The notes under the pieces were generated by a model. That model was not told the origin of the DNA. It saw only the letters and a program-made list of their open reading frames with translations, and ran no database searches. The translations under genes were made by a program, and so were the position numbers. Positions 26,251 to 28,733 of a DNA stretch of 64,000 bases are shown piece after piece. The stretch lies in the sequence record PP925842.1; one strand, written 5' to 3'. This stretch comes from Escherichia phage KookSpook. Position 1 is the stretch's first letter. Every line of letters starts with the position of its first letter.

Positions 26251-27068
26251 TGCGTAGGCTAATTATTATTAGTGGTGCAGGTTTAAGTGTTGAAAGCGGC
26301 GTACGCGCATTTCGTACTGACTCCAGTACTGGTAAAGCGATGTGGGACGAGTTTAATATTGAAGAAGTATGCAATATTCATACCTTTTTAGGAGATTGCT
26401 ACCACAAAACTCATGAGTTCTATAATAAACGCCGTGAAGAACTAGAAACTGTTGAACCTAATCTTGCCCACCTTCGTATTGGTGAGTGGTATAAACGGTA
26501 TCCAAATCAAGTAGTAAACCTTACTACCAACGTTGATGACCTTATTGAGCGTGCTGGCGTTCCACATAGTGACATTCTGCACATTCATGGATATTTAAAA
26601 GAGGTTGTTGTAGCTGATAGCTACAATAGTAGCAATAAACGGATTATTAATGTAGGGTACAATTCTATTGACCCAGATGATTATAAATGGGTTAAACCTA
26701 ATGTAATCTTCTTTGGGGAGCATGCTCCAGCATATGCAGAAATGTACAATGTTTTTGATGGTATTACCAATCAAGATATGATCATTGTGGTTGGTTGCTC
26801 TAACCAAGTAATTAACTTCTATTGGGAATTATTTCCTGTTCTTAATTTGACTGCTGCCAAATTAATGGTAGTTAACTACTATGATAGTGCCCTAGCGGCA
26901 GAGCCAGGCTATCAAGGTATGACTCGTAGTGAGATGTACCAGTTGGAAGAACGTGGTGTCCCTTACTGGAGTAAAGGTGCGGTGGATGCTTTCAGTGACC
27001 CTGATTTTATTGCTCGTGTGGAAGCTCATTTAGAGGATAGACCTTATGTGCCAGGAAGCAATAAATAA
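26250..27068 (+). CDS. Sir2-family (sirtuin-like) NAD-binding protein, no zinc ribbon
   Basis: ISGAGLSVESGVRAFR (GAGIS.ESG..FR), TTNVDDL, HIHGY (catalytic His), IVVGCS; no CxxC pairs. Confidence 0.7.
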   Translation: MRRLIIISGAGLSVESGVRAFRTDSSTGKAMWDEFNIEEVCNIHTFLGDCYHKTHEFYNKRREELETVEPNLAHLRIGEWYKRYPNQVVNLTTNVDDLIERAGVPHSDILHIHGYLKEVVVADSYNSSNKRIINVGYNSIDPDDYKWVKPNVIFFGEHAPAYAEMYNVFDGITNQDMIIVVGCSNQVINFYWELFPVLNLTAAKLMVVNYYDSALAAEPGYQGMTRSEMYQLEERGVPYWSKGAVDAFSDPDFIARVEAHLEDRPYVPGSNK

Positions 27069-27231
27069 TGAATGGGATATTTTTATAACCGAATCTGGTA
27101 TTTGGTGTTATAGGTTTGCCTATAGATTTGCTAGTGTAAAAGAAAGATTGGGCAATACATATAAAATTATCTATACTACGGAGGATATATGGTTATCCTC
27201 CGGAGAGGGGGGAAAACAAATATGTCCATAG
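27046..27231 (+). CDS. small hypothetical protein (WCYR motif)
   Basis: DIFITESGIWCYRF motif shared with next ORF. Confidence 0.35.
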   Translation: MCQEAINNEWDIFITESGIWCYRFAYRFASVKERLGNTYKIIYTTEDIWLSSGEGGKQICP

Positions 27232-27404
27232 TTAAATCTGTGTATACACACCCTGATGATATATTTGTATGGGCGGATGGTAGTTGGTGTTATCGCTGTG
27301 AACTATGGGAAATGGATTATAAATCTGATGACTATGGTGTCATATATACTGATACGGTTGAGTATGATAAGTTCTTAGAAAGGAACAAAAATGGAAATAA
27401 GTAA
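27222..27404 (+). CDS. small hypothetical protein (WCYR motif)
   Basis: start at ATG 27222 after GGAGAGGGGGG RBS; DIFVWADGSWCYRC motif. Confidence 0.4.
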   Translation: MSIVKSVYTHPDDIFVWADGSWCYRCELWEMDYKSDDYGVIYTDTVEYDKFLERNKNGNK

Positions 27405-27897
27405 TACTCCGATTATTTTTCTAGACATTGATGGGGTGCTCAATTCTAGCATCTCTCACCACCATGCACCTGACGATGAAAAGATCTTCTTCGGGGGTGA
27501 TTGGGTTTTTAAACCGCTTCTCAAGGCTTTTCAGGATTTTATTCGTCCCTCTTCAATAATGATTGTTGGGGTATCTTCATGGTTTTCTGTTAAAAATGAG
27601 ATGGAGAACGTTCGGATTATGACCGGATTAGGTCTTATCGATCGTTTTTTAGGTACAACGGATTTTACTGGTGGTGGATTATCTAGGGGTAATTCTGTAC
27701 TTAGGTTTGTAGAAAAACACAAACTTAAGCACTGGTGTGTATTGGATGACGCTGGCGCTATGATGTATCAGTATCCTACAGTTATAGTCAATGGTAAGAC
27801 TGGTATAAATCTTCAAGATCTAATGGCTGCTCGCTATATGCTGGAGTTTAGTCCAGAGCTTGAGATGTGTAAATCATTACAACAATTTAAGGTATAA
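27391..27897 (+). CDS. HAD-superfamily hydrolase/phosphatase-like protein
   Basis: motif I IIFLDIDGVLN; later IVGVSSW and CVLDDAGA. Confidence 0.5.
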   Translation: MEISNTPIIFLDIDGVLNSSISHHHAPDDEKIFFGGDWVFKPLLKAFQDFIRPSSIMIVGVSSWFSVKNEMENVRIMTGLGLIDRFLGTTDFTGGGLSRGNSVLRFVEKHKLKHWCVLDDAGAMMYQYPTVIVNGKTGINLQDLMAARYMLEFSPELEMCKSLQQFKV

Positions 27898-27899
27898 GT

Positions 27900-28328
27900 A
27901 TGTTTAATAATGTATTTTTTAAGGAAACTAATCCGGTACTGGTCAATTTTTGGCGAACTCTTCCTAATAACTTGTATAATGAAGCTATTAACTCCTTAAA
28001 GGTTTGGTGTGAAAATAATGATATTTCTTTTGCATTTAAGGATGATATAGAAGAAACTTCATGCATGGGACTAGTAGTACAACTAGAGGATGGTGTGGAG
28101 GAGATTATTGGCTGGAAAGAGTTAGATGAAATGGGGTTAGTCTTTGCATTAAACTATAAACTATTTATGCCTGTTAAGCATCGAATTGTAATTAACTATA
28201 AGACTAGTGAATCTCCTGGTTTTCAGGTTAATGAACAGTATGGTTGGTCTTATTCACCAGAAGAAGTAAATGAGGGTATCCAAAAACTTCGCCGTTTTGG
28301 TTATCAAATTCCGGGTTTAACTGCCTAA
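27900..28328 (+). CDS. hypothetical protein, paralog A
   Basis: shares W.ELDEMGLVFALNY ... GYQIPGLTA with next ORF. Confidence 0.5.
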   Translation: MFNNVFFKETNPVLVNFWRTLPNNLYNEAINSLKVWCENNDISFAFKDDIEETSCMGLVVQLEDGVEEIIGWKELDEMGLVFALNYKLFMPVKHRIVINYKTSESPGFQVNEQYGWSYSPEEVNEGIQKLRRFGYQIPGLTA

Positions 28329-28334
28329 GGAGGC

Positions 28335-28733
28335 ATGATGGAACAAGTATATTGGCGTCAGATCGATCCTAGTTTAGTGGAGCGTGCTGAAGGATTGCTC
28401 GCACGCTGGCTTGGAGCTGAGAAAGTTAGTGTAGTATTTCCCTTTATGGATATAACAGATTCCAGTACTGGAATCTTTGTAGATGAAGATGAGATGGATG
28501 GGTGGGAAGCCGACTGGAATGAATTATCAGGTATGGGGTTGATTGTTGCCCTTAATTTCTCTGTATTCCATCCACGTGGTTTAGCTATTACGCGTGACCC
28601 AGAAACTGGAGAATCCCATTATCTTTTGCAAGTAGAAGATGATATTTGGGAATACACCGAAGATATTCTTGAAGAAGCTAAAGATCAATTAAATCGCATT
28701 GGGATTTACATCCCAGGTCTGAATGATAATTGA
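28335..28733 (+). CDS. hypothetical protein, paralog B
   Basis: W.ELSGMGLIVALNF ... GIYIPGLND, tandem duplicate of 27900-28328. Confidence 0.5.
   Translation: MMEQVYWRQIDPSLVERAEGLLARWLGAEKVSVVFPFMDITDSSTGIFVDEDEMDGWEADWNELSGMGLIVALNFSVFHPRGLAITRDPETGESHYLLQVEDDIWEYTEDILEEAKDQLNRIGIYIPGLNDN

Follow-up and report, generated by a model that had tools for sequence, protein, structure and literature searches.

Two pairs of adjacent small genes in Escherichia phage KookSpook (PP925842.1) raise the question whether they are recent duplicates that diverged under pressure from the host, as a preliminary description had proposed with anti-defence or exclusion functions in mind, or older and more constrained parts of the phage gene set. 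In this study, we analysed the window, i.e. the whole stretch of 64,000 nt, which belongs to a T5-like phage with a nucleotide identity of 97.6% to MG065692 and about 86% to T5. All four open reading frames were confirmed at the coordinates first described and are orthologues of T5.103, T5.104, T5.106 and T5.107 (here g103, g104, g106 and g107). The genes as such are already known, as they are annotated hypothetical genes of T5 in the catalogued families DUF7415, phrog_2502 and phrog_5116, and a published re-annotation of T5 already puts T5.103 and T5.104 in phrog_5116.

Position of the two gene pairs in a T5-like early operon

Both gene pairs are located in the 3' part of a T5-like early operon, whose genes are densely arranged and overlap or are spaced by 2-6 nt. 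The operon is flanked by nrdD and the gene of an origin-binding helicase and is syntenic with T5.100-T5.108. Downstream of its promoter it includes, in this order, a Sir2 gene, g103, g104, a gene for a HAD phosphatase, g106, g107 and a terminator. As read from the sequence, the putative promoter (TTGCTT-17-TATAAT; 25216..25244, plus strand) lies directly 3' of the nrdD terminator hairpin. In position it corresponds to T5P31, an early promoter annotated 5' of T5.100 in T5, and this site is likely the start of the early operon that contains both pairs.

The Sir2-family gene (T5.102 orthologue; 26250..27068, plus strand; Pfam SIR2 E 1.2e-24, phrog_2162 E 8e-119) overlaps g103 with its 3' end by 23 nt. 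Between the two pairs lies the HAD-superfamily phosphatase gene (T5.105 orthologue; 27391..27897, plus strand; Pfam HAD_SAK_2 E 2.2e-20), which is wrongly labelled 'Sir2' in RefSeq. The operon ends at an intrinsic-terminator-like hairpin, CCGAGTC-AAAAT-GACTCGG followed by TTTT (28758..28780, plus strand), and T5 has an annotated terminator at the same position 3' of T5.107. A consensus terminator scan missed the hairpin, because its T run consists of four T only.

Paralogy, age and selection

The first pair consists of g103 (61 aa; 27046..27231, plus strand; phrog_5116 E 1.4e-20) and g104 (60 aa; 27222..27404, plus strand; phrog_5116 E 8.9e-30). Identity between the two proteins is about 26-31%, and their BLASTP alignment is limited to a 13-aa motif (E 6e-5). 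The Smith-Waterman score of 56 was reached by none of 5000 shuffles (23.9 +/- 4.7). A profile made from non-T5 family members only ranked g104 and g103 as the top two of the 440 ORFs of the window, with E 2e-26 for g104 and 3.8e-4 (15-17 bits) for g103. g104 is a canonical representative of a phage protein family of ~50 aa that is widespread and has the pattern WPDGxWCYR...SDDY; all conserved residues are present (W17, G20, C23, R25 and D36-D37 in g104 numbering). g103 is a degenerate extra copy in which both W17 of the WPDG motif and the SDDY motif are missing. The family comprises 219 representative clusters at E <= 1e-3 and has no Pfam entry. An AF2 model of g104 (pLDDT 76.5) predicts a beta-beta-alpha-beta-alpha fold.

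The second pair, g106 (142 aa; 27900..28328, plus strand) and g107 (132 aa; 28335..28733, plus strand), belongs to DUF7415 (106.4 and 93.1 bits, respectively) and to phrog_2502 (E 1.9e-59 and 5.2e-54), whose profile of 134 positions is covered from 2 to 134 by g106 and from 4 to 134 by g107. BLASTP aligned the two proteins with 33% identity over 126 aa (E 2e-15), and none of 2000 shuffles (29.4 +/- 5.1) reached their Smith-Waterman score of 134. Each protein contains two DUF7415 domains, located in g106 at aa 15-62 (nt 27942-28085) and aa 70-112 (nt 28107-28235) and in g107 at aa 4-50 (nt 28344-28484) and aa 60-100 (nt 28512-28634). When each half-protein was scored alone against a gathering cut-off of 27 bits (PF24187), the halves obtained 58.3 and 51.0 bits in g106 and 43.2 and 53.8 bits in g107; this two-domain repeat rests on the Pfam DUF7415 model, and hhalign of N-halves against C-halves did not recover it. 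The module consists of one helix and a beta-hairpin within ~50 aa, and in g106 the domains precede a helix at the C-terminus and an IPGL tail. g107 is strongly acidic (pI 4.05, net charge -20 over 132 aa; g106 has -8) and its AF2 model is of high confidence (pLDDT 93.8). A single ~50-aa DUF7415 module is therefore present four times across g106 and g107, by way of two rounds of tandem duplication.

The tandem duplication of small genes that the preliminary description had noticed is thus borne out, since shuffle tests and shared family profiles identify both pairs as true paralogs, and the shared motifs reflect homology and not chance or low complexity. Among the motif strings, G(Y/I)(Q/Y)IPGL was given exactly, and the others are to be read as DIF...(S/D)G.WCYR and as W.EL..MGL with two free positions.

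The supposed recent origin did not hold, given the low paralog identities (33% in the second pair, about 26-31% in the first) and the separate clades of 106- and 107-type proteins. Klebsiella phage Sugarland possesses two DUF7415 genes, each with two DUF7415 domains, and in a neighbour-joining tree the upstream gene grouped with the clade of 106-type proteins (94% bootstrap) and the downstream gene with that of 107-type proteins (91%). This duplication is therefore older than the split between Markadamsvirinae and Sugarlandvirus within the Demerecviridae. As judged from tree and gene order, g106 and g107 are paralogs from an ancient tandem duplication, and their order has been kept across both groups. 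Hongcheonvirus DU_PP_V has a single DUF7415 gene, gp086, which the tree places in the 107 clade. Two hydrophobic ORFs of this phage lie between Sir2 and the DUF7415 gene, of which gp088 takes the place of the small genes and gp087 that of a 106-type copy, and they matched neither the small-family profile nor DUF7415.

Conservation differs between the pairs. g105, g106 and g107 were present in 30 of the 30 Markadamsvirinae loci examined, and 537 records matched g106 and 895 matched g107, at two places per T5-like record. Only 26 phage records contain the g103 type, as opposed to 491 with the g104 family, and the lineage of T5 sensu stricto is the only one with g103. Across T5-like phages, the slot of the small genes harbors 0, 1 or 2 copies of three allelic types. 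Variable presence across these phages, which had been named as a check on the proposal, is thus found for the g103/g104 slot but not for g106/g107. The presence/absence polymorphism of the small genes fits an accessory role.

All four genes are under purifying selection, as far as codon comparison can tell. Pairwise NG86 omega values were 0.13 (g103), 0.07 (g104), 0.075 (g106) and 0.12 (g107), next to 0.09, 0.06 and 0.06 for the neighboring genes of Sir2, HAD phosphatase and origin-binding protein. The highest pN/pS of any 15-codon window in g106 or g107 was 0.57, in the least constrained segment of g107 (aa 26-40). Omega values of 0.07-0.13 and window values not above 0.57 do not agree with the host-driven selection that had been proposed.

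Homologs, possible functions and alternative readings

Outside the T5-like phages, DUF7415 proteins of 77-91 aa with a single domain are encoded by T4-like and other phages. Neighbors of DUF7415 genes include P2 gpA (L037, L042), a UvsW-like helicase (L040), nrdD (Roth04) and rnlA/denA/td (Aeh1). In the P2-like locus L037, DUF7415 is fused to a Lar-type zinc ribbon (PF14354; 28.8 bits, cut-off 28.6); the Pfam scan of g106 and g107 gave no Lar domain. A firm linkage of HAD and DUF7415 genes outside T5-like phages was considered and rejected: in the unrelated myovirus Aeh1 the association is loose, with HAD_SAK_2 and the DUF7415 gene four genes apart in one co-directional cluster, and in Aeromonas phage phiAS5 the HAD gene is present with no DUF7415 within 5 kb. 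In other phages, the small WCYR family is found next to genes for DNA polymerase A, DnaB-type helicase, ligases and exonuclease, and intragenic tandem copies occur in P0087, P0118 and P0135. Distant members of this family have a context of ~1-kb contigs only. A search of plasmids gave no match for the small WCYR family and two Pseudomonas records for DUF7415, and a role of both families as plasmid-borne anti-defence cargo was discarded.

Neither family had a profile match among PDB sequences, searches of the four genes against NCBIfam and PADLOC were equally negative, and for both families there was no significant fold match to any functionally annotated protein. A relation of the four genes to a known defence or anti-defence protein, as the preliminary description might lead one to expect, is thus not seen in PADLOC, PDB sequences or significant fold matches. 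A literature search for DUF7415, T5.102-T5.107 and T5p100-T5p105 found no papers, and T5-like phages are outside the scope of the HIDEN-SEQ preprint. In a CRISPRi-ART screen, T5.107 was among the 17 'Fit' T5 genes, with a marginal call (p = 0.02), and T5.102-106 were 'Not Fit' (PMC11879866 supplement). The origin-binding protein T5.108 was also scored 'Not Fit' (PMC11879866 supplement), and the sensitivity of the screen is therefore limited. T5.107 was described as 'of entirely unknown function' (PMC11879866).

Taken together, we consider it probable, with some reserve, that the four genes are best explained as old, conserved paralogs of a T5-like early operon. With low confidence, both families may be small, acidic, non-enzymatic binding modules that act as dimers. 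This is suggested by the intragenic tandems of the small family and by the single-domain DUF7415 proteins, and action as dimers would account for the recurrence of these modules both as genes in tandem and as repeats in tandem inside a single polypeptide. DUF7415 proteins with one domain would then homodimerise, those of T5 with two domains would represent pseudo-dimers with a covalent link, and g106 and g107 might have subfunctionalised, perhaps into a hetero-oligomer. The most likely role of both families would be to bind a protein or a nucleic acid during the replication and nucleotide-metabolism stage of infection; location in a region of replication or nucleotide metabolism is a weak argument, as this is where the majority of small early phage genes are found. 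The 107-type may be the more important DUF7415 copy, since it is the sole copy in DU_PP_V and T5.107 was called 'Fit', and the small WCYR genes may be dispensable accessories.

It is tempting to speculate further that T5.106 and T5.107 form an acidic hetero-oligomer on a host or phage replication or DNA-processing protein, possibly as a nucleic-acid mimic, but we regard this more specific form as quite doubtful. If true, it would account for the effect of T5.107 on fitness, for the repeated occurrence of the module next to replication initiators and helicases, and for the fusions to ASCH and Lar-type domains in P2-like phages. DUF7415 would then represent an uncharacterised class of replication-stage factors, and T5.106 and T5.107 would be needed for efficient growth of T5.

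The view that the pairs are anti-defence or exclusion genes under host-driven selection, in one version with g107 as a DNA mimic or immune inhibitor and the WCYR genes as swappable cassettes, appears unlikely, and none of the present results gives an anti-defence function positive support. The small-gene slot is indeed polymorphic in copy number and allelic type, but the duplications are ancient and g106 and g107 are retained universally in T5-like phages. The net charge of g107 and its weakly constrained segment would suit such a role, but purifying selection was found both gene-wide and by window, and the fitness effect of T5.107 was already seen on a laboratory strain. The P2-like fusion of DUF7415 to a Lar restriction-alleviation-type zinc ribbon, just above the cut-off, points in the same direction; against this stand the searches, which gave no PADLOC match and no significant fold or sequence match to solved or functionally annotated proteins, anti-defence proteins included, and the near absence of the two families from plasmids.

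It is rather improbable that the four proteins are accessory or regulatory subunits of the Sir2 and HAD proteins in one NAD-, nucleotide- or RNA-end-processing module. All these genes lie in one operon, and overlapping stop and start codons suggest translational coupling; however, in Shigella phage SHSML-45, where Sir2 and the small genes have been deleted and HAD is truncated, both g106 and g107 are still present. The order of Sir2, small gene and DUF7415 gene is kept in Sugarland, and that of Sir2 and DUF7415 gene in DU_PP_V, but the HAD gene is absent from both phages. Neither small gene is present in five T5-like loci, four of which still contain Sir2 and HAD. The proximity of HAD_SAK_2 and DUF7415 in Aeh1 finds no counterpart in phiAS5, the T4-like and P2-like loci examined have neither Sir2 nor HAD adjoining the DUF7415 gene, and a scan of 24 neighbors of small-family genes in other phages gave no match to Sir2. 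That the motifs are due to chance or low complexity, or that the ORFs are not real genes, is practically negligible: the alignment of g103 and g104 over 13 residues only and the weak profile score of g103 are outweighed by the shuffle tests, the matches of both pairs to family profiles, omega values that indicate selection on protein sequence, and orthologs in hundreds of phage records.

Among phage genes of unknown function, DUF7415 is of interest as a confidently folding module without known structural relative that is present four times per genome in Demerecviridae, and T5.107 as one of few T5 genes of unknown function with a measured fitness effect. The WCYR/SDDY proteins constitute a large unnamed phage family of ~50 aa in replication modules. 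Either family is a reasonable target for interaction mapping.

Comparison with known systems

Among known proteins that counteract restriction, Ocr, ArdA and Lar/Ral resemble g107 only in that g107 is small, early-expressed and strongly acidic. None of them has sequence or fold similarity to the DUF7415 proteins of T5-like phages, and as regards mimicry of DNA the analysis covered bulk charge. T4-like and P2-like phages have DUF7415 proteins with one domain or with a fusion, for example KP27_192, Aeh1p318 and the DUF3850/ASCH-DUF7415 protein of the P2 orf91 type, which contain the same ~50-aa module of helix and beta-hairpin as g106 and g107. These T4-like and P2-like proteins have the signature W.EL..(M)GL...(L/I)N...HP in common with g106 and g107. 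They consist of one domain, or are fused to DUF3850/ASCH or to a Lar-type zinc ribbon, and in contrast to the T5-like proteins they have neither tandem domains or genes nor the IPGL tail.

The nearest known system is T5 itself. g103 and g104 are 82% and 95% identical at the amino-acid level to T5.103 and T5.104 (YP_006931, YP_006932), which share the overlapping arrangement 3' of Sir2 with no difference of substance. g106 and g107 are 86% and 66% identical to T5.106 and T5.107 (YP_006934, YP_006935). In the window, g107 belongs to the Epseptimavirus allelic type (87% identity) and g106 to the T5 type, which makes the locus mosaic. In both phages the second pair occupies the same operon position and has the same two-domain DUF7415 architecture with a C-terminal IPGL tail.

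Genomic organization of the two gene pairs

Both pairs were mapped from the T5 annotation as part of five genes: the orthologues of T5.103 (g103, 27046-27231), T5.104 (g104, 27222-27404), T5.105 (27391-27897), T5.106 (g106, 27900-28328) and T5.107 (g107, 28335-28733). They are preceded by the Sir2-like T5.102 orthologue (26250-27068) and followed by the orthologue of the origin-binding protein T5.108 (from 29274). Further upstream, nrdD (23298-25172) ends at a hairpin terminator, after which lies a promoter-like sequence, TTGCTT-17-TATAAT (25216-25244); a second hairpin (CCGAGTC/GACTCGG and a T run, 28758-28780) follows g107. 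The ten ORFs between this promoter and 28733 overlap or are separated by at most 6 nt, and T5 records have an early promoter and a terminator annotated at equivalent places. Because of this tight packing, the two signals and the matching T5 annotation, the region would be transcribed as one early operon. Its first ORF (25272-25511, 79 aa) lies immediately 3' of the promoter. The second (25508-25888) is the very acidic T5.100 orthologue (net charge -18), for which PADLOC returned a noise-level match only. The T5.105 orthologue is called 'Sir2 (NAD-dependent deacetylase)' in RefSeq and phrog_18062 carries the same label; judged by its Pfam match (HAD_SAK_2, E 2e-20) it is a HAD-superfamily phosphatase, and the wrong label has spread into many T5-like records.

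The region 26000-29300 shares 97.6% nucleotide identity with the deposited T5-like genome MG065692 and is about 86% identical to T5 and many Demerecviridae of E. coli and Salmonella. MG065692, the nearest record in the database, bears the name 'Campylobacter phage C13' and gives Campylobacter jejuni as host, an assignment that looks doubtful. The relatives of the window are enterobacterial T5-like phages, save for a handful of records with odd labels, two 'Campylobacter' and three 'Listeria' ones among them.

Paralogy and age of the pairs

The preliminary description had regarded both pairs as recent tandem duplicates, and their paralogy was confirmed. g106 and g107 share 33% identity across 126 aa (E 2e-15; Smith-Waterman score 134, shuffles 29 +/- 5). 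For g103 and g104 the BLASTP alignment is limited to a 13-residue motif (E 6e-5), with a local score of 56 that none of 5000 shuffles reached (24 +/- 5). Both match phrog_5116, and with a profile built from non-T5 relatives only they were the top two among 440 window ORFs (E 2e-26 and 3.8e-4). No extra copy of either family was found elsewhere within the 64-kb window. This paralogy is already implicit in existing annotation, since a CRISPRi-ART study of T5 re-annotated T5.103/T5.104 as phrog_5116 and T5.106/T5.107 as phrog_2502 (PMC11879866); the genes themselves are already catalogued.

g106 and g107 each match Pfam DUF7415 (PF24187) in two stretches. Scanned singly, the four half-proteins score 58, 51, 43 and 54 bits (cut-off 27 bits), so that one module of about 50 aa is present four times, through one intragenic and one gene-level tandem duplication. 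The internal repeat rests on the Pfam model, since hhalign of the shallow half-alignments did not reproduce it.

The gene-level duplication is old, contradicting the earlier view. In a bootstrapped neighbour-joining tree, the two adjacent two-domain DUF7415 genes of Klebsiella phage Sugarland, a different genus of Demerecviridae, separate into the 106 clade (upstream gene, 94%) and the 107 clade (downstream gene, 91%), and the one DUF7415 gene of Pectobacterium phage DU_PP_V falls within the 107 clade. The duplication thus predates these lineages, with gene order kept. The locus (27900-28733) is mosaic, since g106 is of T5 type, with 86% aa identity to T5.106 and 71% to its Epseptimavirus counterpart, and g107 of Epseptimavirus type (87%, versus 66% to T5.107), which implies a recombination junction near 28330.

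Selection and distribution

Orthologues from the window and 29 other T5-like loci (28-29 distinct sequences per gene) were compared by Nei-Gojobori omega and by pN/pS in sliding 15-codon windows. Purifying selection acts on all four genes, with omega 0.075 for g106, 0.12 for g107, 0.07 for g104 and 0.13 for g103 (only 5 sequences); the neighbouring HAD, Sir2 and origin-binding protein genes gave 0.06, 0.09 and 0.06. These values establish the ORFs as real genes. pN/pS reached at most 0.57, the least constrained stretch being g107 aa 26-40, and constraint was strongest in the W.EL..MGL..ALN helix of the second domain. At this resolution (gene-wide omega, 15-codon windows) there was no sign of diversifying selection. 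The duplicates first described are real, and their interpretation as recent and host-driven is not supported.

Presence and absence gave a divided answer. g106 and g107 are retained in all T5-like loci examined, whereas the small-gene slot varies, and this polymorphism is the sole feature that fits an accessory role. Besides the window, T5 and three further loci have both small genes; most of the 30 T5-like loci have one small gene, of three allelic types, and five have none. g103 and g104 are dispensable. By tblastn, the g103 type was found in 26 phage records, compared with 491 for the g104 family. In the T5-like Shigella phage SHSML-45 (L019 4999-6393), the T5.106/T5.107 orthologues are intact, Sir2 and both small genes are lost and the HAD gene is truncated at its N-terminal end.

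Family contexts and possible role

Both families are specific to phages, with essentially no plasmid members. An exhaustive profile search for the small family yielded 219 representative clusters (E <= 1e-3), mostly of 45-65 aa, with the consensus DDIxVWPDGxWCYR...(M/K)SDDY...(D)TPEY..F. g104 is a canonical member; g103 has lost the SDDY motif as well as the WPDG tryptophan. No Pfam model matched the family, no relative was found in the PDB, and an AF2 model was only moderate (pLDDT 76.5). Distant members (P0087, P0118, P0135, P0075, P0110) carry two copies per polypeptide or have the module C-terminal to a DNA-binding domain of the HTH_31 or MazE/AbrB type. The small gene is surrounded in other phages by genes for DNA polymerase A, a DnaB-type helicase, ligase and exonuclease.

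Genes for single-domain DUF7415 proteins (77-91 aa) adjoin nrdD in Klebsiella T4-like phages; KP27 has one near its Nudix and RNA-ligase genes, another lies 3' of a UvsW-like helicase gene, and in Aeh1 one follows rnlA in the td-HAD-nrdA.1-denA-rnlA cluster. In P2-like prophages, a DUF3850/ASCH-DUF7415 fusion lies directly downstream of the replication gene gpA (L042 5267-5767), and another P2-like group has, immediately upstream of gpA, a fusion of DUF7415 with a Lar-type restriction-alleviation zinc ribbon (L037 5989-6414). DUF7415 thus recurs in regions of replication and nucleic-acid metabolism, which is suggestive but weak, because most small early genes lie there. KP27 also encodes, two genes downstream of its single-domain DUF7415 gene, a protein of 175 aa (L005 4598-5125) with the GmrSD_N domain of type IV restriction (E 7e-19). 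A fixed partnership of DUF7415 with Sir2 and HAD is contradicted by SHSML-45, which keeps the pair without Sir2, by Sugarland and DU_PP_V, which have no HAD gene, and by phiAS5, whose HAD gene has no DUF7415 nearby.

Tentatively, both families may represent small, acidic, non-enzymatic binding modules acting as dimers (g107: pI 4.05, net charge -20); dimer formation is proposed as the reason why they recur as tandem genes and intragenic tandems. Such modules might serve the replication and nucleotide-metabolism stage of infection, with the main function possibly carried by the 107-type copy. Databases label T5.106/T5.107 orthologues 'tail tube protein', 'exonuclease' or 'Phage exonuclease (ACLAME 70)', for which this analysis found no support, and the literature open to search reports no function for these genes. 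The gene pairs are of modest interest as targets for interaction studies. In T5 itself, T5.107, termed of entirely unknown function, is among 17 "Fit" genes (p = 0.02), whereas T5.102-T5.106 are "Not Fit" (PMC11879866 supplement).
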